From positions 463,532 through 527,531 of the forward strand of contig OZ241331.1 of NCBI GenBank assembly GCA_965200005.1: a DNA stretch of 64,000 bases, in the 5' to 3' direction. Under the pieces are notes generated by a model, which was not told where the DNA came from, did not search any database, and saw only the letters and a program-made list of their open reading frames with translations. Each line of letters starts with the position of its first letter. The stretch's first letter is position 1. The DNA is from Acidimicrobiales bacterium. Lineage in GTDB: Bacteria; Actinomycetota; Acidimicrobiia; Acidimicrobiales; Aldehydirespiratoraceae. Positions 18,201-32,252 of the stretch are shown here, piece by piece. The position numbers and the translations under genes are program-made.

Positions 18201-20567
18201 CTAGCGGAGGGGTTGGGTGGTGTTGAAGTGGTCGATGGCTTGTTGGATTATCTCGCTGGGTTCCCAGTCGTAGTAGGCGACTATCTGGTCCCGGGCTCTA
18301 GTCATGGCAACAAACAGCTTCGAGATCTGTAACTCGCGATATTCGGATGCTTCATCGGGGGTCTGTCGCCGGTGGGACTTCGGGAACTTGTTCTTTGTCA
18401 GTTGTGGCAGTATCACGACCTTGAACTCAAGGCCTTTAGCCCGGTTGTAGGTACCGACCTTCACTGCACTACTTGTCACGCCCGTGTAATTCTCTAACGA
18501 TTGCGTCGCCACGCCCCGTTGTCGAAGTTTCTTCTCTATCGCGTTCACGTCCGCTCTGGAGGGGGCGAGTATTGCGATGTCACCGCTTCCGTAGGTGTCC
18601 GTTCCTTCGTTGAGTGCGTTGATTCGCTTGGCCATGTCATCGATCTGAGCGTCGAGTCCCACCGCCTTGATAAGCAACGGCACAGGGCCCTGACGATTCG
18701 CTGTGGTTGTTTCACTGGATCGTTGAAACGTCTCACCAAGGTCGTGAACTTCGACGTTGCCCGTCGCAGCTAATGCCGCAGAGACAATCTGGTTCGTGTT
18801 GCGATAGTTCTCCGTGAGCACTGTTGTGCGACCACGCACCTCAACACCCGCCTGGCGCAAAGTGAATCCGCCTGGGTAGATGCGCTGAGCACCGTCGCCG
18901 ATGATCAGCAACCCGTCGGGCCGGTCATGATCGAAGTCGGGGGCGTTCACGAGCCCTCGCAACATCTGCAAGCCCGCAAGGGTCAGATCCTGGGCCTCGT
19001 CAACGATGACCGCGGAGTACCTCGGTGCGTGCAACGTTCGCACAAACTTGAGAGCCCTAGTGATGACGTCAAAGAAGTCCATGACACCGAGATGTTGCAT
19101 CTCGGTGTCCCAAGCATTCATGAGGTTCCACAACTGCTCCCGCTGACGAGAACGCATCGGAACCCTCCTGCCAACACGGGAGACAGCCTGGTACTCATCA
19201 AGAGACTCAAGGGCACGACTCTTTACGACACGCTGGATCTCCTCTCGTAGGTAGAATTTGGAAAGGTTTGAGACACCGAGCGGTGTCCCCGGTACTACGA
19301 CTTGGTCATACGCATTGTCGAAGGCGCGGTTGACTTCCTTAGTCACGATGCGCGGCCTAAATCCCGACTCACTGCATAGACGCCATGCCAGCTTGTCAAC
19401 GTTGATGAACTCGACCTCTGAGGTGTGTGCTCCAGGCAAACGCTTCAAGAGTGCCTCAAACACGGGAGGCAGGGTCTTTATGTAGGTCGTGAACAGCACG
19501 GGCACTGCTGGCGAACTCTCAGCGCCAAACAACTGAGATTTGCGCTGTTGCCTTGCCTCGTAATTGCGTTTGGCAAGACGAGCAGCGCGATGAAGACCAA
19601 CGACTGTCTTGCCAGTGCCGGCTCCACCTCGCACCCGTGCCGGGCCGTTGTAGTTGCGCTTCACGGCAGCCTGCTGGTCTGGATGCAAGAAGATCATCCA
19701 ATCCTCAATTGGACGCCCAATCACATCAGCGAGGAACTCCGGTTCCACCCGCGTGAACTGCGGCGCAACCTTCGGATCCACGAGCATCTGCCCCAGCAAC
19801 CGCTCCTCTTCAGTAACAGTGATCTGGCTCTCGGGGATATGCGCCGAGCTAACATCCGAGGCGTTCCCGGACGGCGAGCGATCCGCAATTGAGCTTGACT
19901 CGTCTGGATCCGTGACTGGAGGTTCAACGTCACCAGACTCGTCGGCATCGGACTCTTCAACGGTGGACTCATTCGAAGACTGTCCATCGGGACTACCGTA
20001 AGCGATGAGGTTGAAAGCAGAGTCGAAGTAACGGCCTAGCTCTATGTCCAAACGGAGCAGTTCATCTTCGGTGTTTAGCTTGCGCAAGTGCGACACAATG
20101 AAGGACGGAAACCAGACTGCCAGTTCATCGTCTTCCCATGCCATGAAGAGACGGCCGGCCTCCTCATGACGCGACTCCTCGTGGCGAAACTCGTTGTCCC
20201 GTTCCTGCTGCTCTTCGAATGGAAGTTCTTCAAGGACCACTTTGTGCTGATCGGGCTCAAGTCGTACCTGCATGCGTCGCGCTCGCTCGTAGATCTTGTG
20301 AGTTCCGTAGAGCAACAGCACGATCGTGCGATCGAAAATCTGCCAAACGACACGTCGATTAGATGATCGACCCGCTACATCCGAAGCGAATATTTGCCGA
20401 CCCTTTGTCGAGTTGGCGATGTTGTGTGTTGAGAGCTTGGGACTGTGAAATGGCCGAGTCTCGATCTCAGCGACTGTTTCCCAAAGTCGCGCCGCGAATC
20501 TGGGTTCGTCAGGAAACGACTTGATGCAGTCCCTGAATGAATCTGCCCACGTGACCCTGTAAATCAT
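18201..20567 (-). CDS. fusion protein: N-terminal RelE/ParE-like toxin-fold domain plus SF1 UvrD-type helicase
   Basis: aa 1-98 (IYRVTW...RRVVWQIFDRTIVLLLYGTHKIYE) follow the RelE/ParE pattern. An acidic/Ser-rich linker follows. Helicase motifs: Walker A GGAGTGKT, motif II VIVDEAQDL, ENYRNT and C-terminal KGLEFKVVILP. Confidence 0.65.
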   Translation of the reverse strand: MIYRVTWADSFRDCIKSFPDEPRFAARLWETVAEIETRPFHSPKLSTHNIANSTKGRQIFASDVAGRSSNRRVVWQIFDRTIVLLLYGTHKIYERARRMQVRLEPDQHKVVLEELPFEEQQERDNEFRHEESRHEEAGRLFMAWEDDELAVWFPSFIVSHLRKLNTEDELLRLDIELGRYFDSAFNLIAYGSPDGQSSNESTVEESDADESGDVEPPVTDPDESSSIADRSPSGNASDVSSAHIPESQITVTEEERLLGQMLVDPKVAPQFTRVEPEFLADVIGRPIEDWMIFLHPDQQAAVKRNYNGPARVRGGAGTGKTVVGLHRAARLAKRNYEARQQRKSQLFGAESSPAVPVLFTTYIKTLPPVFEALLKRLPGAHTSEVEFINVDKLAWRLCSESGFRPRIVTKEVNRAFDNAYDQVVVPGTPLGVSNLSKFYLREEIQRVVKSRALESLDEYQAVSRVGRRVPMRSRQREQLWNLMNAWDTEMQHLGVMDFFDVITRALKFVRTLHAPRYSAVIVDEAQDLTLAGLQMLRGLVNAPDFDHDRPDGLLIIGDGAQRIYPGGFTLRQAGVEVRGRTTVLTENYRNTNQIVSAALAATGNVEVHDLGETFQRSSETTTANRQGPVPLLIKAVGLDAQIDDMAKRINALNEGTDTYGSGDIAILAPSRADVNAIEKKLRQRGVATQSLENYTGVTSSAVKVGTYNRAKGLEFKVVILPQLTKNKFPKSHRRQTPDEASEYRELQISKLFVAMTRARDQIVAYYDWEPSEIIQQAIDHFNTTQPLR

Positions 20568-20766
20568 GTCAATAGCTTTGAGTCAAGAGTCAAAGTCGCA
20601 CCATGGAATCCACGTGGCCCATAATCTGGCACAGCACACCAAGTTAGCGGCAACAGTCAATGAAAATCGCCACGTTTGTCGGGGGCATATACTTGGTGAA
20701 TCCTTCTTTGGCTTGTGTTCAGTAGTTGGTCTCGTAATTTGGTAGCAGTTGAGAATCAGTTCTGGT

Positions 20767-21129
20767 TTAGGTGCTCACGTAAGTCTCGAAGCGTGCTCCG
20801 AGTCGCAACATGTCGTTCGGGTCGGCGGTGAGAATGAACGTGCCCAACTTCTCGGCGACCACCGCTAAGTGTGCGTCCACTACGTCGGACGTGCCAGTTC
20901 TAGCCAAGCGTGTACCAACTGCCCGCGAATCGTCAAGAGAATGAACCTCGAAGTGTCGCAAAGCTCGAATCAGGTTGACCTGACGAGCAGGGTGTCTCCA
21001 GACCTGTGCCAACACGGGATGTGTGGTGTGTAGTTCGCCTCCGCGTTTGGCAGCCACCTTGATTAGTGCCCAGAGTCGGGAGTTCAGATTCTCGGCGTCA
21101 ACTATGAAGGGTCCCGCATCCACGATCAC
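20767..21129 (-). CDS. vapC: PIN-domain ribonuclease toxin (VapC-like)
   Basis: 120 aa with the N-terminal acidic motif IVDAGPFIV and distal Asp residues (SDVVDAHL, LTADPND). The GTG start overlaps the stop of the upstream reading frame (GTGA). Confidence 0.7.
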   Translation of the reverse strand: MIVDAGPFIVDAENLNSRLWALIKVAAKRGGELHTTHPVLAQVWRHPARQVNLIRALRHFEVHSLDDSRAVGTRLARTGTSDVVDAHLAVVAEKLGTFILTADPNDMLRLGARFETYVST

Positions 21130-21370
21130 CGGCCGATGCCTTGCCGGTCAAGGACCGCATTAGCCCAGTCAACATGCTCCGCGTCGATTGGGCCTTCATC
21201 AGCCTCCCATTCGGCGATCAAATCAAGGAGCGCGGGCTGCGGCGACGCCGCCTCACTTCAGCTAGCAACGACCGCTTAATGGCGAGTCGTTTCGTACCGT
21301 CAATGGCAACTAGCTCATCGAGGGCGGCTTGCATTTCGTCGTCAAGGGTGATGGTCGTCTTGGTAGCCAT
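21126..21370 (-). pseudogene. vapB: ribbon-helix-helix antitoxin (VapB-like), apparently frameshifted
   Basis: From the ATG at 21370 the frame reads MATKTTITLDDEMQAALDELVAIDGTKRLAIKRSLLAEV, then runs into RRRRRSPRSLI* (stop at 21218). A second frame, open from about 21257, reads SEAASPQPALLDLIAEWEADEGPIDAEHVDWANAVLDRQGIGR* and ends in a GTGA overlap with vapC. Confidence 0.55.
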
Positions 21371-21440: not shown

Positions 21441-22565
21441 CTAGAGGTGTTTGGCGGCCTCGGAGAGGGGGAGGAGTTGGGCGGTGGGGGTCATTAACTC
21501 GCCGTGGGTTAGGAAGAACCTGAATAGGACGGTGCCTATTCGGCGGCCTTCGGTATCGAGCCAGTTTGGGGTTCCGGGATTGGTGGCTGAGATGACGAGC
21601 GTGAAGTTGCCGTCGTCGTCTGCGGTTGCCTGGGCACGGTTCAGGGAAGTTTGCCGGTTGGCGTAATCGAGGGTTTGCATGTGACGGTTCCACAGACAGA
21701 CATTGCCGAAACGACACTCAGGCCAGGCTGCCTTCACGACCAGCGCCTCATCTGCACCAACCATGAACGGCGCCATGCAATAGGCAGCATCAAAGGCTGC
21801 CAGACCGATGGTGCCTGGAGGCCCTGGCGGTGGGAACACATTGGGGACTCTCGACAGCCACGGGATCGGCCGACCTTGCTCCGACAGTGGCCGGCCAACC
21901 GTTATCCGCCGCAACAGAGTGTTCACACGGTGGATGCCCTCGGCCACGCTGCTATCGGTTGGCCGGTGCGGTGGCTCGCCCGCCCCATCAATCACATCAA
22001 TCTTCATGACCGGCTGCAGCGCCGAGTCTTTGCCAGCCGACTTCGGGTTCTCGAAGTAGTGACGTGTCGTCAGTGACCCAGCGCCTTCAGGCAAGCCGAT
22101 CCAGTTCCGATCACGCTGCTTGCCACCCACGAACAGCTCGAAACGGCCTTCGTCATCAATGTCAAACGAGTCATCGTTGATAATGCCAAGCACTTCGTTT
22201 TCTAGAGCGCCCCAGTCGGTGCCCGACTCGATCGTTATCGAGACATACACCGCGCCACGGGTTTCGCCACGCACCCGGTAGCTGTAATCGGCAGACACTG
22301 GCGTATCGAAATAGATCGCATCGGGATTGTCACCCATGATCTTGCGACTCGGATTGGCGATACGGCGGAAGCCCGGTGCCGCGGGATTACGCTCAAACAA
22401 TCCAACAAGGCCCCACTGAAGCGTGTGCATGACTGCCCGGTAAGCGTCAACTCTGTCTTCAACGGTGTGGAAGTTCCACTCTGGGGACACCCACCGCTCA
22501 TCAACATCCGCTAGCAGGTCAACAAGCTCACTAAAGGCCTGATGCGACTGCGTGTCATCCTTCAC
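21441..22565 (-). CDS. DUF1214-domain protein
   Basis: The C-terminal 374 codons of the 798-aa ORF. The GTG at 22565 gives (M)KDDTQSHQAFSELVDLLADVDERWVSPEW...DNPDAIYFDTPV..., as in standalone DUF1214 proteins. It overlaps the stop of the upstream gene by 11 nt. Confidence 0.65.
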   Translation of the reverse strand: MKDDTQSHQAFSELVDLLADVDERWVSPEWNFHTVEDRVDAYRAVMHTLQWGLVGLFERNPAAPGFRRIANPSRKIMGDNPDAIYFDTPVSADYSYRVRGETRGAVYVSITIESGTDWGALENEVLGIINDDSFDIDDEGRFELFVGGKQRDRNWIGLPEGAGSLTTRHYFENPKSAGKDSALQPVMKIDVIDGAGEPPHRPTDSSVAEGIHRVNTLLRRITVGRPLSEQGRPIPWLSRVPNVFPPPGPPGTIGLAAFDAAYCMAPFMVGADEALVVKAAWPECRFGNVCLWNRHMQTLDYANRQTSLNRAQATADDDGNFTLVISATNPGTPNWLDTEGRRIGTVLFRFFLTHGELMTPTAQLLPLSEAAKHL

Positions 22566-23837
22566 GTGCCACTCCGAAGTGTTCGATGTATGGGGCCATC
22601 TCGGCACGCAAAGACTCCGCCGTGAAGCCCCACTCTTCGGGCGTATAGCGATGCACGCCGAATTTGCCCTTGGGTTTGTGGGCAAGATAACTGAGCACCG
22701 CCGCTGCGTGATCGTCTGTGAACGGGCGGCCCATCTGCTCATACGCCCGTGACATCGTCGCCACCGGATCTCGTAGCAGTTCGGAGAAATGGATATCAAC
22801 AAACCGCTCAGAGGCACAACGTTGCGGCTCCGTAGCTTTATCGAGCCGTTGAGGCCAGCCGAGAACGTCGCCAAGACAGACGCCGCTACAGCATCGACAT
22901 CCACTTCATCGGTGCGCATCCACTGGATCATGGCTGAAATACTGACCGTGGATGGCATGGTCTTGACCGGGTCGCGGTGTGTCTGTATCACCCATGCGTC
23001 GGGGAAGGCAGCGAAGAGCAGCGGTAGAAGCATCAAGTGAGCGGGCGTCTTGAGAAGCCAGTTTCTGGATTTGCCGTTGGAGGAGCCGCTAGACGTGGCC
23101 CCAGCAACATGTTGCAAAACTTGCAGGAACGCACGCTCATAAGCGTAGTTGACCGCGGGATCCTGTCGCCAACCATCGAACCGAGCGATCATGGACCAGT
23201 GAAAGCCACAGAAGCTGCCCTGGGTGAGGGTCACACACTCAACGGGAAGGTCTGAGCGGAGCTCGTGCAGTGCCAGGAACTCAGGCTGCACATCAGCCCA
23301 GAACTCCTGCTCGCACTCGCTTAGAGCAAACGCATCTACCGAATCACCGTCGTTGATCCTCAGGGGGTGCAGGGCCTCGGCAGCGGTCGGTGCTCGCAGG
23401 GTCGGATCAAGGGCAAGCAACTCGAACAGGATCGAAGTACCCGACCGGGCAGGGCCAGTGACAATTACAGGCGCAACGACAGGCGACTCAAGGATGCTTG
23501 GCTCATCGTCAACTCGCCGAGTTAGACACAGCCGGGTTATCAGCGAACGCAGCAGCTCCTGTTTAGTCATGAGCCTGCCGCGCACATGCATCGAACTCAC
23601 ATCGATCGCTGAGACAAGAGTCCGGAAGCGCTCCTGCCAGTGCGGATCACCGAGGTCGCCGGTTGGTAATCCACCAAAGGGCCCAGCTGCGATTCGCAGC
23701 ATGTCGTGTGCATCGATCGGTACGAGTGACCGGCTCGACCCCCCAATCGAGGTGGCCATTAGATTGAGCCGCCGTACCCAGTCGGGCCGCTCGAGACGCT
23801 GAGTCATCGGCGCCAGGGGCTTAGAGGTTCCACTCAC
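22555..23837 (-). pseudogene. sulfotransferase-family protein with an apparent single frameshift
   Basis: The PAPS-binding loop GPARSGTSIL and RDPVKT lie in the frame starting at 23837. The expected C-terminus ERFVDIHFSELLRDPVATMSRAYEQMGRPF...YIEHFGVAREG* lies in another frame (the 69-aa ORF 22555-22764 and upstream). The switch is near 22850-22862. Confidence 0.6.
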
Positions 23838-26903: not shown

Positions 26904-29264
26904 TTAGCAGTTGGAGCTGGGGTAGATGAGGAGCTTCCATACGGCTGTGTCGGCGGGATCTCGGTAGTCGTAGGACTCCCAAGACAGCGACAGCAGTGGA
27001 AGTATGGGTAGCGGAGTGGGGGTGTTGATGTCGCCCGACTCGATGAAGTTGCTGGTCTCGATACCCGAACGGACTCGCTGGCACGCTCGCCGCTCTTCCA
27101 ACGCCTTGACCATCTCCTCCTCAAACTTGGCCAACGTCACGGGTGAACCGTCGAGGAAAAACTGGTCGTTGTCGTCGTAGTTGACTAGTTGCGGTGTGGT
27201 GTCAACGGCGGATGACGACGCAAGCATGTCAACCACAATCGCTCCATCGTCGGGGTCACTGAACGACACATTCGGCTCGTTGATGTCCTGCGATGGCCTA
27301 GCCAGTTCAACCCAGTACGCCGTCGTGCTCGCAAAGAGGTCATCGTTACGGCTTGTGGTACCCCTGTCGTGCGACAGGCTCAAGGCCTCCATGCCGGCAG
27401 GACCCTTGTACTCATACGGGATCGAAGCAATGCCGTCATCACCCGTGACGCCATTACCAACTACCTCGTCCGCGTAGCCACTGGTCAACTCAACATTGGC
27501 ACCAACTAGCGGATCACCGTATTGATCACGGAGTACTGCATGAACAGTATTGACCTGTGCTTCGCCACCACGCGGCGCAAGTCCGTAGCTGTCGACAACA
27601 GCATCCATGTATTGCGCTCGAGGTGTCTCGTCCGTGAACACGACGTTCGAATACCAACTGGTGATGTAACGAGAGACCCCATCCTCAGTTCTCAACTGGG
27701 TTGAGAATGCGCTAGCACCTGGAACCAGGCTGTCGTTGCCGAGGTAGTTCCGCGCCTCACGGGAGACTTCGAGCCGCACAACCATCCCGTTGCCACGGCG
27801 TCTCGGATCGGGATCGACGGTAGACACCGCAATCTCCAAACTGCCGTCTCGAGCGGCCCGCAGCACCTCGGTGGTTTCGGAGATCGGAGGCGGTATGGCG
27901 TTCTTGCCTCGGTATAGCCGCTTCGTGATGGTGTAGTCGATCGCTGAACGTCCCGGGCCGACATCCACTTCGACATCATCAGCTCGAGTGCCTCGCAACT
28001 GAAGCGTAAAGGTGACCGTGCTACCAAAGCGGGACACGACAGCACCCTCGGGGCGATCATCTGTGATCTTGGCGAAACCGATCTCCTCGACGACTAAGTT
28101 TGACAGCGTCACCTCAACGCTCTGAAGATCGGTATCCGAAAACACAGTACGACCCCGAGGACCTGTCCACGAGTACACCGTTATGCCACTACGCACATCC
28201 TGTGGACTAAGCCGATTAAGTAGGTAATCTCCGTCAGCTCCTGTCAGTGGGTCATTGCTGTCGATTGCGCAGGTCCTCGTGCCTAGCAGCCGGAACGTCT
28301 GATTGGTACACGTCCCATTGGACCGAAACGCTGTGTGCCGTGTGTCCGTTTCAACGAAAAACACATCAACCGGAGCGTTCGAGACTGGGGCGAAGTCGTC
28401 ATCACGAACGGAGACCACCACGTCAGGGCCCGAGGCCTGAACTGTCACACCGGCGGGTCGCAGCGTAGAGTGTCCGAGTGCACGAATTATGAACGTAGCC
28501 ATCTGGCCTCGAGTAACCGACCCACTTCCGTTGAACACTGTTCCATCCCGAACACCCTTCGTTATGCCGAGCTCATACGCCGCGCTGATCCCGTGATTCT
28601 CTGCGGTCGTGTGGGTGCGTATCGCATCTTGGAACGCATCATCCGGTGGTGATTTCATCGGACCCAGGAGGAAGACACCGTTTCGCTTCTCGACATCATC
28701 TGATGCCAAAGCAACCATGTTCGACAGGAACATCGCCATGTCAGCCCGTGTCACGGTTCCGGACGGATCAAAGGACGACTCCGACCTGGGAGTCATCACG
28801 CCGTTGCTTACGACTTGATGCACTGCATCCTGGACCTCAACACTCCAGCCTGACGTATCATCAAACGTTCTGCGTACCCCGAAGTCATCTGTAGCACGCA
28901 CTGGTGCGCTGATCTCGGCAACGTTCATCGCACGTGACAAGAACACCGCCATCTGCCAGCGGGGCACGAACTGCCCAGGTGAAAACGTTGAGCCATCCCC
29001 GGTGCCAACGGTAATTCCGTAATACGCCATACAGTTGATTGACTCTTCAAAGGTGTGGCCGTCGGGCACATCTGTGAAGCCACGATCTGCAATGGCATCA
29101 CCAAGGCATGCTGTGAACTCAGCTGGGAAGTCAGGCTCGGAATAGGCATCGATCGCTAGAGAAGGCTCAACGTTCGCGACGATGAGGATCGCCGCAGCGA
29201 TGATGACTGTTGAGGCTGTGGCTAGGAGCTTTCGACCGAAGCCATGCTTGGTAGGTGCGCTCAT
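26904..29264 (-). CDS. secreted cell-surface protein with three N-terminal SLH domains
   Basis: Signal peptide MSAPTKHGFGRKLLATASTVIIAAAILIVANVEPSLA. Three SLH repeats: FTDVPDGHTFEESINCMAYYGIT, FDDTSGWSVEVQDAV..., and ...ISAAYELGITKG...VTRGQMATFIIRAL. The ATG at 29264 is preceded by GGAGGTG; the ORF is open to 29318. Confidence 0.85.
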   Translation of the reverse strand: MSAPTKHGFGRKLLATASTVIIAAAILIVANVEPSLAIDAYSEPDFPAEFTACLGDAIADRGFTDVPDGHTFEESINCMAYYGITVGTGDGSTFSPGQFVPRWQMAVFLSRAMNVAEISAPVRATDDFGVRRTFDDTSGWSVEVQDAVHQVVSNGVMTPRSESSFDPSGTVTRADMAMFLSNMVALASDDVEKRNGVFLLGPMKSPPDDAFQDAIRTHTTAENHGISAAYELGITKGVRDGTVFNGSGSVTRGQMATFIIRALGHSTLRPAGVTVQASGPDVVVSVRDDDFAPVSNAPVDVFFVETDTRHTAFRSNGTCTNQTFRLLGTRTCAIDSNDPLTGADGDYLLNRLSPQDVRSGITVYSWTGPRGRTVFSDTDLQSVEVTLSNLVVEEIGFAKITDDRPEGAVVSRFGSTVTFTLQLRGTRADDVEVDVGPGRSAIDYTITKRLYRGKNAIPPPISETTEVLRAARDGSLEIAVSTVDPDPRRRGNGMVVRLEVSREARNYLGNDSLVPGASAFSTQLRTEDGVSRYITSWYSNVVFTDETPRAQYMDAVVDSYGLAPRGGEAQVNTVHAVLRDQYGDPLVGANVELTSGYADEVVGNGVTGDDGIASIPYEYKGPAGMEALSLSHDRGTTSRNDDLFASTTAYWVELARPSQDINEPNVSFSDPDDGAIVVDMLASSSAVDTTPQLVNYDDNDQFFLDGSPVTLAKFEEEMVKALEERRACQRVRSGIETSNFIESGDINTPTPLPILPLLSLSWESYDYRDPADTAVWKLLIYPSSNC

Positions 29265-29409
29265 GTTCACCTCCGAAATGAATTGGCTGGCCCTGTTGCC
29301 GCCGATTGTACGTGACACCTATCTGATCCTACGTTGCGAGGCGACCTGCCGTCAGCCTTAGGAACATCGTATGTACGCGACGACTCTCGACGTTACAGCC
29401 AGAACGCGT

Positions 29410-29505: not shown

Positions 29506-31797
29506 TCAGCCTGCTGGAGCTGGAGCTGGGGTGTAGGTGAAGACCGCCACGTCCGACCGATCGTCAGCTTCATAGCTTGCCCACTCAACAGTGCCCTTCT
29601 TCATGGCGGCCAAGTCGGTCGTAATGAGCCTTTCGAAGTCATCAATTGAGATGGCATCGTCGTCACTACCATCACGGAACTGGTCGTTGCTGTCGTAGAT
29701 CGCTCGGACTGGCCGCACGTTATTGTTCGCGCCCGATGTGTCCTTATTCAAGATAACTGCGTTGCGATCAGTGTCAATCGTGAGCAATCCGCCCATCTCC
29801 GAGCCGTCCATCGCATCTTCAACCCAGTAAACATGTGCCCTACCACACGGTTGGGTTCCTCCGTCAATGGGATTTTTGTCAATGTCTTGTTCACAGGGAC
29901 CTGTGCCGTACTTGGCTGTCAGCATCTCCGCATGGCCCATGCCAGAACCTTCGTGGGTATATGAGATTCGCACTGTTCCGTCGCGGCCAGTGACACGCTC
30001 ACGTGAAGGAACCTTGCTCTTTCCACTCTGGTTTGACGAAAGCCTGACCTCCACTCCGGACATCGCAGCGCCGTACTGATCAAGGACAGACACGGTAGCT
30101 GTGACTCCGGCCCCAGATGTCGGGCCGGGATCAGTGTGGTAGCTGCCGACATCAACTGACACGGTCGTCACGTCCGGTTCCTCATCGGAGAAGAACACCT
30201 GACCCATAATTTTGGCCTGAACATCCTCCCCCATTGTGGGTGTGATCTCATACGACACTGCTGAAGTATCAGATCCGGTAGTTGCCGGGTATGCGGAACT
30301 TGGGTTCGGGTCACTGGCCGTGAGAGGAATACTCGCTGCACCAGAAGCGTCCAGCGCCAGTTCTATGGTCTCCTGGCTGTAGACACTGTCCATCTTTGGG
30401 TCATCGCCGGCATGCAACTTGACCACAACAGACAACGACCAATCTCCGGCACCGACACCAGTAGCAGCGCCTTTCGCGTCAATTAGCTGGATATTTAGGT
30501 GAACTGTTGATCCGTACCGGGCCTTTTGGGCATCCTTGGCTAGATCAGTTGAGTCTCTCACCATCACACCTGGACTCGGTACCGCTTCCTTCGTCAGTTC
30601 CATCTCAAAGGCTGCGGTATCTGTGGAACTGAACTTTGCACCGGCAGCTCCCGACCACACCCAAACAGTGACACCGCTATCGCCGATCGTCGCAGGGCCC
30701 GACAGGCTGACATCGCCGTTAGCTCCAGTGGCTTTGTCATCCTTATCGATTTCGCATACGTTCGTCTCTAGCTCTAGCGCCATCACGTGTCCGCAGGTAC
30801 CGTCATCCCTGAAGGCACGGCTCATCTGGGCGTTGTCAACCCAGAAGCCGTCAATAGCTGCGTTGGTAACGGGCGCAAGGTTGGCGTCTCGAACCGACAC
30901 AACGATGTCGCTGCCATAGGCCTGAGCGGTGACACCTGCTGGGCGCAGGCCAGTGTGATCCATCGCTCGGGTGATGAATGCAGCCATCTGGCCACGTGTC
31001 ACCGAACCACTTGGATCAAACGAGGTGCCGTCACCGACGCCACTGGTGATGCCGAGTTCATAGGCCACGCTGACCGCACGATCAATGTGTGCGGGATAGC
31101 CCATACGAACGTCATCAAAGGAGTCATTAGGAGCCTCGGAAGTTGTTCCGGTGCCCAGCCTGAAGAGACCGCTCCTATCTGTGCTCACCTCGGTGGAAGC
31201 CTTGTCAACGAGGGCCACCAAGGCAACTGCCATGTCGACACGAGACATTGCGTCGTCGGGATAGAAGTGGGAGTTGTCGCCTGACATGACACCGGCCTTG
31301 ACGACGTTGTCAATCTCATGACCGATCCATGAAGCGACACTGCCGAGGTCACTGAAACCAGCGGCTGACATATGCATGTCGTCCATGTCGCCTGACATGT
31401 CGTCCATGCCCATTTCGTCCATCATGTCCATGTCGTATTCGGCACCGATGTCGACACCCATCAAGCGAGCGGCACGAGCCAAGAACACTGCCATCTGCCA
31501 GCGTGAGACTGTGTCGTTCGGTGAGAAGGTTGAACCGTCGCCAGTGCCCTTTGAGATTCCGTAATAGGCCAAGCAGTCGATGGCGTGTGCGAACTCGTCG
31601 CCGTCCATCACATCGCTAAAGCCCTGGCTCTCAGCGGCTGCCCCAAGACATGCCGTTGACGATGCCGGCCTGTCCGGCTTGGACTTGTCGTCGATCGCCG
31701 CCGCCGGAGACGCCCCGACAGCGAAGAGCGAGGCAATCAAGGCGCCTACGGCGAGCACAGCCCAACCTAAGCGCCGCTTCTTCACTAGTTGGGGCAT
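29506..31797 (-). CDS. secreted cell-surface protein with three N-terminal SLH domains (paralogue of 26904-29264)
   Basis: From the ATG at 31797: MPQLVKKRRLGWAVLAVGALIASLFAVGASPAAA signal, then SLH repeats (FSDVMDGDEFAHAIDCLAYYGIS...). Collinear similarity to the neighbouring gene. In-frame upstream starts exist at 31827 (GTG) and 31848 (ATG). Confidence 0.85.
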   Translation of the reverse strand: MPQLVKKRRLGWAVLAVGALIASLFAVGASPAAAIDDKSKPDRPASSTACLGAAAESQGFSDVMDGDEFAHAIDCLAYYGISKGTGDGSTFSPNDTVSRWQMAVFLARAARLMGVDIGAEYDMDMMDEMGMDDMSGDMDDMHMSAAGFSDLGSVASWIGHEIDNVVKAGVMSGDNSHFYPDDAMSRVDMAVALVALVDKASTEVSTDRSGLFRLGTGTTSEAPNDSFDDVRMGYPAHIDRAVSVAYELGITSGVGDGTSFDPSGSVTRGQMAAFITRAMDHTGLRPAGVTAQAYGSDIVVSVRDANLAPVTNAAIDGFWVDNAQMSRAFRDDGTCGHVMALELETNVCEIDKDDKATGANGDVSLSGPATIGDSGVTVWVWSGAAGAKFSSTDTAAFEMELTKEAVPSPGVMVRDSTDLAKDAQKARYGSTVHLNIQLIDAKGAATGVGAGDWSLSVVVKLHAGDDPKMDSVYSQETIELALDASGAASIPLTASDPNPSSAYPATTGSDTSAVSYEITPTMGEDVQAKIMGQVFFSDEEPDVTTVSVDVGSYHTDPGPTSGAGVTATVSVLDQYGAAMSGVEVRLSSNQSGKSKVPSRERVTGRDGTVRISYTHEGSGMGHAEMLTAKYGTGPCEQDIDKNPIDGGTQPCGRAHVYWVEDAMDGSEMGGLLTIDTDRNAVILNKDTSGANNNVRPVRAIYDSNDQFRDGSDDDAISIDDFERLITTDLAAMKKGTVEWASYEADDRSDVAVFTYTPAPAPAG

Positions 31798-31862
31798 CGG
31801 CCCCTCCTTTGCTTGTACCTGGGGCACAGGCCCCTCCGAATGGGGCATGCGCCCCTCCTTTC
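31789..31862 (-). promoter_or_regulatory. three tandem Shine-Dalgarno + start-codon modules, each able to fold into a small GC hairpin
   Basis: Minus strand: AAGGAGGGGCGCATGCCCCA, TCGGAGGGGCCTGTGCCCCA and AAGGAGGGGCCGATGCCCCA. The starts at 31848, 31827 and 31797 are all in frame. Each unit contains GGGGC-n4-GCCCC. Confidence 0.45.
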
Positions 31863-32252
31863 TTCTATACCTGGATTCCCACGTGTGCCAAGTTCGGCCC
31901 GATCGGAACTGCGCACAATACACGCTTGGACCGAGCGAGATCAGCCGTGAGCACGCTAGTTACGACGCTCATCTGCTAAACCCCCCTCGGACCGCGATCC
32001 TAAGCGTCGCGGAGACGCTAACACGCGGGTCGCTCCCGTCACAGGTGAGGAGTGTAGCACGCGCACTTGGGCCGACACGTTTATTCACTACGTGCGTCGG
32101 CCGCCTTGACGGCAATTTCCGTCGTCGCAAGCACGAGTGGCTGTTGCGTCTGCCATGCACTGGCGGCGTGACTATCAACAGTTTCACCACGGACGGAGAG
32201 GATAACGCAGTCATTGGGTACGACAGGGTATTGAGGTAAGGGTGAGATCTGC

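Follow-up and report, generated by a model that had tools for sequence, protein, structure and literature searches.

An orphan ArmD-like protein of an Acidimicrobiales genome, predicted to couple a RelE-type fold to a UvrD/GajB-like helicase

What kind of protein joins the fold of a bacterial toxin to a helicase motor in one chain, with no antitoxin beside it, and does it belong to a known defense system? The question is posed by a gene in a 64,000-nucleotide stretch of an Acidimicrobiales genome (GenBank assembly GCA_965200005.1, contig OZ241331.1, positions 463,532 to 527,531 of the forward strand; hereinafter the window), whose complete open reading frame (ORF), with an ATG start (18201..20567, minus strand), encodes a protein of 788 amino acids (aa). 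An earlier description made from the letters alone (hereinafter the sequence-only reading) had seen in it a RelE/ParE-type fold fused to a superfamily 1 (SF1) helicase, in an architecture without a named counterpart. That last point has to be given up: the architecture already has a name, ArmD of ARMADA type II (PMC12458937, PMC13463889). By sequence comparison, the window protein is an ArmD homologue over its whole length, i.e., an orphan ArmD-family protein made of a RelE-fold N-module and a UvrD/GajB-like SF1 helicase. The fitting annotation label is 'ArmD-like (orphan)', not 'novel toxin-helicase'.

The predicted RelE-type domain, the helicase, and their likeness to ArmD

The relationship with ArmD draws on both parts of the protein. 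In BLASTP comparisons, its helicase aligned with ArmD of E. coli ATCC 8739, the strain that supplied our reference armABCD set, at 31% identity over 497 aa (e-value 7e-55), while a profile of the family's N-terminal region matched the N-terminus of E. coli ArmD (27 bits, profile positions 23-179) across both the RelE-like domain and the helical module behind it. The helicase halves and the N-terminal profile both match E. coli ArmD, and the homology therefore extends over the whole chain. Like the experimentally studied ArmD proteins of RelE-UvrD architecture (E. coli NCTC 12900, ATCC 8739, and EDL933 z5902; Bell et al. 2025 preprint, PMC12458937; mBio 2026, PMC13463889), the window protein leads from a RelE-like N-domain through a hairpin and a helical module to a GajB/UvrD-like SF1 helicase, and it has in common with them the signature P[IL]ExW-x-FLHPxQ followed by GxAGTGKT. 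It differs from E. coli ArmD in its putative general base, His48 (YafQ-like) as against Glu48, and in a much longer, acidic linker (788 versus 704 aa in total). Database searches recovered more than 760 homologues of the window protein; most of the best 120 span the full length (~730-840 aa), with 40-52% identity to it.

The toxin-like fold that the sequence-only reading had placed in aa 1-98 (20274..20567, minus strand; a predicted endoribonuclease effector domain) was recovered by structure prediction. For aa 1-196, AlphaFold2 with 33 homologues as input gave a model with a mean predicted local distance difference test score (pLDDT) of 90.9, with values of 91-96 over this domain, whose elements follow the order beta-alpha-alpha-beta-beta-beta-beta (strand 4-7; helices 9-16 and 22-37; strands 47-52, 58-63, 72-78, and 81-88; then a short helix, 92-97). 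Foldseek searches of the PDB with this model returned RelE-superfamily toxins as all of the top 18 matches (E 5e-5 to 2e-3; target template modeling [TM] score 0.63-0.80; root-mean-square deviation [rmsd] 2.4-4.3 Å), including HP0892/HP0894, the RelE proteins of P. horikoshii and M. jannaschii, YafQ, YoeB, and M. tuberculosis RelK. The best of these (YafQ, YoeB, RelE, and HP0892) reached a target TM of 0.75-0.80 at an rmsd of 2.4-3.1 Å over ~90 residues, and the next in rank after the 18 were the CARF-RelE nuclease Cami1, ParE, and HigB; the Foldseek viral library yielded small phage RelE-like toxins only. The N-terminal ~98 aa are thus confidently modeled as a RelE/YafQ/YoeB toxin fold, and the sequence-only reading was right on this point.

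A profile search of 1.84 billion representative clusters found the N-module in 299 of them only. Among the matches are free-standing proteins of 89-101 aa that carry the same motifs and come close to the Pfam YafQ_toxin model (E 1e-6, 29.1 bits against a cut-off of 30), with further sub-threshold matches to YoeB and ParE; they form a sequence-level bridge to the classical toxins. The N-domains of divergent relatives likewise gave sub-threshold YafQ/YoeB/HigB/ParE matches in Pfam and nothing above them.

Conservation within the protein is among the highest in its first ~100 aa: in an alignment of 44 sequences, P39, V64, R72, G88, and H90 are invariant, and H48 is nearly so. In a further alignment, made with MAFFT, E. 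coli RelE, YoeB, and YafQ (K-12 genome sequences) were set against 32 ArmD-like N-domains, no two of them identical. R67 (29/32 N-domains) falls in the column of RelE R56 and YoeB R59, R72 (31/32) in that of RelE R61 and YoeB R65, H90 (30/32) in that of YoeB H83 and YafQ H87, and Y93 (28/32) in that of RelE Y87; G88 is likewise conserved in the RelE-fold domain. Position 48, aligned with YoeB E46 and YafQ H50, is more variable (E in 15, H in 13, and K in 3 of the 32). E. coli ArmD has R62, R68, H88, and Y92 in the conserved Arg/His/Tyr columns, and the clade of the window protein has the YafQ-like 'TH...GTH' version. We take the aligned toxin positions (YoeB E46/R59/R65/H83, YafQ H50/H87, and RelE R56/R61/Y87) to be the catalytic residues of those toxins, and ribonuclease (RNase) competence of the N-domain is a likely, if unproven, prediction from this pattern. 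The domain shares with the type II toxins YafQ, YoeB, RelE, and HP0892/HP0894 the fold, the aligned Arg/His/Tyr positions, and, as in YafQ, a C-terminal GTH. Unlike them, it is fused, comes without an antitoxin, reaches no Pfam toxin model at threshold, and is followed in the same chain by the hairpin, the helical module, and ~500 aa of helicase.

The SF1 helicase (aa 293-788; 18204..19691, minus strand) is complete, as the sequence-only reading held, with each of the motifs it had quoted: a Walker A GGAGTGKT (aa 314-321; 19605-19628, minus strand), a Walker B VIVDEAQDL (aa 520-528; 18984-19010, minus strand), ENYRNT (aa 586-591), and KGLEFKVVILP (aa 711-721). Pfam recognizes UvrD-helicase in aa 295-564 (E 4.5e-13) and UvrD_C (E 8.9e-18), and the PDB sequences matched by the core are UvrD1 and PcrA. 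In PADLOC, whose matches cover the helicase core only, the best models are those of GajB (1.7e-27), followed by a NERD+UvrD candidate (C3a187; 6.5e-26, confined to aa 510-768). The likeness to GajB of the Gabija system is thus one of the UvrD-like SF1 core; GajB itself has no RelE-fold N-domain, the window gene is flanked by a PhyH dioxygenase and a PIN/RHH pair with no GajA, and no GajA-like (OLD/TOPRIM nuclease) neighbor was seen in the homologue loci that we inspected.

Cassettes, decayed cassettes, and orphans among the relatives

ARMADA type II comprises four proteins, namely the SNF2/BrxHII-like helicase ArmA, the PglX-like methyltransferase ArmB, the YprA-like helicase ArmC, and ArmD (PMC12458937). 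We found comparable cassettes around relatives of the window gene. In six loci (L001, L003, L016, L017, L019, and L021), an armC gene coding for a YprA/DruE-like protein of 1710-1734 aa lies 0-95 bp downstream (PADLOC DruE3, ~1e-100), and in L013 the downstream armC-like helicase is split into two ORFs, with starts 154 and 742 bp away, and is apparently interrupted. After armC come a gene for an SNF2 protein of ~950 aa (PADLOC DpdE, 794-890 bits; DrmD, ~1e-85 to 1e-90) and one for a DrmMI-like N6-methyltransferase. The PADLOC names DruE, DpdE/DrmD, and DrmMI point to Druantia or DISARM, but because a YprA-like helicase, a BrxHII/SNF2-like helicase, a PglX-like methyltransferase, and a RelE-UvrD protein are all present, the ARMADA description fits these cassettes better. 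The published type II order is a 'strict' armA-armB-armC-armD (PMC12458937), whereas the cassettes of Acidimicrobiia and Gordonia run armD-armC-armA-armB (L001, L003, L013, L017, and L021; e.g., L017:3689-15857); their armC-armA-armB part is type I-like, with armD placed in front. In L001 and L013, a small unannotated ORF (213-247 aa) additionally stands between armC and armA.

Other copies have lost this company in part or altogether. An intact armD stands with a fragmented armC in L004:10289-11230, L007:11858-15063 (= L012), and L014:13807-16536, the last with its ArmA-like SNF2 gene still intact beside the broken armC; these loci look like snapshots of cassette decay in which armD was retained. 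Many further copies have no Arm partner within 10 kb: about 20 orphan loci were found in Acidimicrobiia, Chloroflexota, and other lineages, many of them far diverged yet intact. No alternative conserved partner emerged among the orphan loci, whose recurrent neighbors are ArmC/ArmA-like genes, an AAA_14/DUF4143 ATPase (5 loci), and a lineage-specific synteny in Caldilineaceae. In a rough neighbor-joining tree built from the helicase cores, copies linked to cassettes, copies in decayed cassettes, and orphans are interleaved, which implies that the armD lineage has undergone repeated loss of partners or repeated solo transfer.

The link to phage defense drawn by the sequence-only reading is borne out by such contexts, in that the homologues occur mostly in variable or defense settings, in cassettes and islands, rather than in housekeeping ones. 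Orphan copies are often found near a TmtA-like gene, GmrSD, a type IV restriction gene, AAA_14/DUF4143, insertion sequence (IS) elements, or PIN toxins. For instance, an orphan ArmD-like gene occurs with a PLD-DEAD type IV restriction-like gene, a C5 methylase, and DUF6339 in L005/L006 (3257-5794 and 405-2485), and with a TmtA-like giant helicase and GmrSD in L002:10437-17766. These are typical defense islands.

A genome scan showed the same helicase chassis with three tiers of N-terminal domains. Close relatives from Acidimicrobiia retain the N-module of the window protein; other Acidimicrobiia, Caldilineaceae, and further lineages have divergent yet profile-detectable RelE-like N-domains; and a clade from Actinomycetes has a NERD domain (PF08378, E 1e-10) in the place of RelE. 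Proteins of this last, NERD+UvrD clade (PADLOC C3a187) form a sister clade with ~35-41% identity to the window protein over aa ~270-762 and a similarly long N-terminal region (~240 aa); however, their N-domain is a PD-(D/E)xK-type nuclease and not a RelE fold, and Pfam detects no NERD domain in the window protein. In Actinoplanes sp. (L029:14-3612), a NERD-clade helicase whose N-terminus is cut by the contig end has an ArmC/DruE-like fragment 27 bp downstream, and relatives of the NERD type may thus join YprA-type cassettes too.

Conversely, some STAND (AAA_16/NACHT)+TPR proteins also begin with the N-module (the RelE fold, the hairpin, and the 'LFxRWSDxEL...' helical module). Four of these (P0171, P0155, P0179, and P0240; 889-907 aa) combine the N-module with a STAND NTPase and C-terminal TPRs, an Avs-like layout with a RelE-type effector. 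A further variant, P0233, is ArmD-like but extended at its C-terminus by DUF429 (UvrD+DUF429). The swapping of N-terminal nuclease-type domains on an NTPase chassis is the usual pattern for defense effector domains.

Two other known systems offer parallels. Cami1 (CARF-RelE; PDB 8phj/8phb) likewise ties a RelE fold covalently to a sensor with no antitoxin, but its partner domain, CARF, is unrelated. CnuH of the CoCoNuT systems (PMC11090510) is a UPF1-like SF1 helicase with a RelE-like RTL domain, also with no antitoxin involved, in which that domain is internal rather than N-terminal. Both are likened to the window protein by architecture, and Cami1 also by fold, with no sequence relationship shown.

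The locus of the window gene recurs in a sister strain (contig L091), at 96-98% identity on the DNA level. Its copy (L091:2225-4655) is intact and codes for 809 aa, the difference being an in-frame insertion of 21 aa (LSGDDSEAVSHRSRPGDSLPR) in the acidic linker, the length of which therefore varies even between close strains. The database gene call for this copy (P0001, 711 aa) starts too late. A Nei-Gojobori comparison of the two copies gives an overall dN/dS of 0.28 and counts 0 non-synonymous changes within aa 1-110; these values come from one pair of sequences, of which the partner is a contig of 3x coverage. The orphan copy appears to be kept by selection.

A proposed helicase-controlled effector and its competing explanations

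We lean, with some reserve, towards viewing the window protein as a motor-plus-effector of the ArmD type, in which a GajB-like SF1 ATPase controls a tethered, cis-restrained YafQ/YoeB-type RNase. To the fold, homology, residue conservation, and genomic context described above, this view adds a gating step and an RNA target, which would operate as follows. The SF1 motor would serve as sensor and regulator by engaging nucleic acid made during infection, e.g., DNA ends or single-stranded DNA, on the model of GajB, which is reported to sense DNA termini and to hydrolyze (d)ATP/(d)GTP (preprint 10.1101/2023.05.02.539174). Binding and hydrolysis of ATP would then position or release the N-terminal endoribonuclease on its tether, leading to local cleavage of RNA. 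Until then, the toxin fold would be held in check in cis by the helicase and/or by the hairpin-helix element that follows it, and no antitoxin would be needed because of this proposed restraint. In the relatives, ArmD would work within the ArmD-ArmC(YprA/DruE-like)-ArmA(SNF2)-ArmB(N6-methyltransferase) cassette; since these partners are absent from the window, its copy would either act alone or depend on partners outside the 64 kb.

In E. coli, the importance of the motor is established: the K266A substitution of the Walker A lysine of ArmD abolishes protection and D454N causes partial loss (PMC12458937), and deletion of armD in enterohemorrhagic E. coli EDL933 abolishes defense against Bas18 (PMC13463889).

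Several points weigh against the motor-plus-effector proposal. Defense in E. coli needs all four arm genes, ArmD alone being insufficient (PMC12458937), while the window copy differs from the ARMADA II operon in that no ArmA/B/C-like ORF was found in the 64 kb (phmmer with E. coli and Acidimicrobiia queries). ARMADA II protection is reported to be direct and non-abortive, without metabolic shutdown (PMC12458937), and such action fits poorly with a toxin that shuts off translation globally. The point substitutions made in ArmD affect ATPase motifs (PMC12458937), neither of the two studies has a mutant in the RelE-like domain (PMC12458937, PMC13463889), and the RNase activity is predicted. As for the domain itself, aa 1-120 and aa 1-308 gave 0 matches in Pfam even at E<=10, and neither these segments nor the N-terminal profile found anything significant in NCBIfam or among PDB sequences; with all these searches null, the fold is demonstrable by structure prediction only. 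An hhalign comparison of the family's N-profile with the single E. coli YafQ sequence placed GTH over GTH at a score that was not significant, the residue correspondences come from the MAFFT alignment and the fold matches rather than from residue-level superposition, and the dN/dS has the single-pair basis given above.

Going one step further, orphan ArmD proteins might be autonomous single-gene effectors, i.e., helicase-gated YafQ/YoeB-type RNases that operate without ArmA/B/C, with an N-module portable between SF1 helicases and STAND NTPases. We offer this as a tentative and rather doubtful extension. The single-gene anti-phage logic proposed by the sequence-only reading survives in the same measure: it is possible for the orphan copy and does not apply to the characterized ArmD, which is one of four essential genes. 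If such autonomy were real, either ARMADA type II would have recruited a stand-alone helicase-toxin, or armD would repeatedly escape its cassette and survive alone.

ArmD is the least understood component of ARMADA, and non-abortive action is puzzling for a system with a translation-toxin fold. Orphan armD genes that seem to be under purifying selection and that accompany a pseudogenized armC in related genomes, the exchange of NERD for RelE, and the presence of the N-module on STAND NTPases together suggest that the N-module truly acts as an effector and that ArmD may function in its own right. Being compact, an orphan of this kind would offer a simple construct for studying the control of a tethered RelE-type RNase by an SF1 motor where no antitoxin takes part. 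The apparent selective maintenance of orphan ArmD copies, the armD-first order in Acidimicrobiia, the NERD-for-RelE swap on the helicase chassis, and the reuse of the N-module on STAND NTPases all go beyond the published accounts (PMC12458937, PMC13463889).

The gene could alternatively be a relic, an intact leftover of a decayed ARMADA-like cassette with no function in the absence of ArmA/B/C. The essentiality of all four genes in E. coli, the fragmented armC beside an intact armD in L004, L007/L012, and L014, the interleaving of cassette-linked, decayed, and orphan copies in the tree, and the lack of an Arm partner in the window would all be expected of such a leftover. Yet the 788-aa ORF is intact and retains every helicase motif and all conserved residues of the N-domain, the dN/dS of 0.28 and the in-frame linker indel speak for constraint, and about 20 orphan loci, many of them far diverged yet intact, are spread across lineages. 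We regard a functionless relic as unlikely.

A second alternative accepts a function for the protein but not the RNase chemistry: the RelE fold would be a non-catalytic adaptor that docks the ribosome, RNA, or a partner, with defense being exerted by the helicase and, where present, a Vsr-type nuclease of ArmC. ParE-type toxins, which have the RelE fold, are well established to work without RNase chemistry; position 48 is not fixed, being E, H, or K; and an adaptor would suit both the non-abortive character of ARMADA II, with no metabolic shutdown, and the fact that ArmD has so far been tested in its ATPase motifs only. Against this, Arg72, His90, and Tyr93 are kept in 28-31 of the 32 N-domains although the lineages are very divergent, the sister clade has a bona fide nuclease domain (NERD) in the place of RelE, and the N-module occupies an N-terminal, effector-type position on STAND NTPases. 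We consider an adaptor role rather improbable.

Much less credible is a housekeeping role outside immunity, as a UvrD/HelD-like repair factor or a quality-control factor of transcription or translation. The NCBIfam likeness to PcrA, UvrD, and HelD/HelR that could be cited for it is weak, with all scores far under the family cut-offs; the Caldilineaceae neighborhood, syntenic among five genomes, and the metabolic and transport genes flanking the window gene are in its favor, but they are outweighed by the rarity of the N-module in the cluster search, by the repeated linkage of the family to ARMADA-like cassettes, GmrSD, type IV restriction genes, IS elements, and toxin-antitoxin modules, and by the E. 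coli homologue being a defense gene. Finally, neutralization in trans by a hidden antitoxin seems extremely improbable, be it the VapB-like RHH protein of the PIN/RHH pair found immediately upstream in the same orientation or some small ORF or RNA that escaped annotation. The RHH gene already has a toxin partner in the PIN gene, the homologues show no conserved pair of this kind beside them, the 199-bp spacer is without a credible ORF, and E. coli armD has no adjoining antitoxin gene.

Connecting segments of the protein and surroundings of the gene

Between the RelE fold and the helicase lie four segments. The first (aa 99-135; 20163..20273, minus strand), which sits where canonical RelE toxins end, is modeled as a beta-hairpin (99-104 and 109-114; pLDDT 84-94) followed by a charged helix (117-135), and it is a candidate cis-regulatory or connector element; its motif RxRxxFDPxxxxVxV is conserved family-wide and recognizable in the alignments with E. 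coli ArmD. The second is a four-helix module (aa 138-190; 19998..20156, minus strand), with helices at 146-190 in the model of aa 1-196, a pLDDT of 82 when predicted alone with AlphaFold2, and the pattern LFMAW-x-D-x-EL...G-x-P...LRRLNT-x-DELL. W144 and R162 are invariant in the family alignment, and the profile alignment places the E. coli ArmD counterpart at aa ~128-174. Modeled alone, aa 138-190 gave no significant fold match in a Foldseek search of the PDB; we had considered a helix-hairpin-helix for this module and dropped it as unsupported by that search.

The third segment is the acidic/Ser-rich linker that the sequence-only reading had seen at aa ~190-245 and that composition places at aa 191-247 (19827..19997, minus strand; 15 S, 8 D, and 7 E among 57 residues); in the alignment, its length differs widely between homologues. 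The fourth, a conserved pre-helicase segment delimited by the family alignment (aa 248-292; 19692..19826, minus strand), runs into the family signature PIEDWMIFLHPDQ (aa 286-298). The same pre-helicase motif is present in E. coli ArmD (PLEKWRVFLHPSQ) and was also found in the NERD-UvrD clade.

Upstream of the gene, the spacer (20568..20766, minus strand), a putative promoter region, is AT-rich, as had been noted, with a G+C content (GC) of 46.7%; it contains no credible same-strand or antitoxin-sized ORF, only ORFs of 25-29 aa with TTG starts. The gene itself had been described as lower in GC than its surroundings. Its value of 55.9% is indeed below the window mean of 58.0%, but marginally so, at the 14th percentile of same-size windows (standard deviation 2.5%), and the adjoining PhyH gene is lower still (54.0%).

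The flanks agree with the sequence-only reading, which had placed the gene between a catabolic cluster and a VapBC module: one side has genes for a PhyH dioxygenase and a peptide-type ABC transporter, and the other has a VapBC-like pair followed by a sulfotransferase/DUF1214 ORF and an EamA transporter. The pair, directly upstream on the same strand, consists of a PIN-domain ORF (20767-21129, minus strand; Pfam PIN E 0.0017, below the cut-off) and an RHH ORF of 50 aa (21218-21370, minus strand; E 0.017), and together with the ArmD-like gene it forms an islet of ~3.4 kb amid metabolic and transport genes. The gap of 88 bp between the PIN and RHH ORFs suggests that the PIN start is perhaps mis-set. 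The ORF behind them (21441-23837, minus strand; 798 aa) combines Sulfotransfer_3 (aa 123-321) with a C-terminal DUF1214 (aa 708-775), which points to an unusual fusion or else to a read-through of two genes. Farther along, two adjoining SLH ORFs of ~805 aa (26904-29318 and 29506-31923, both minus strand) probably code for paralogous cell-envelope proteins unrelated to the ArmD-like gene.

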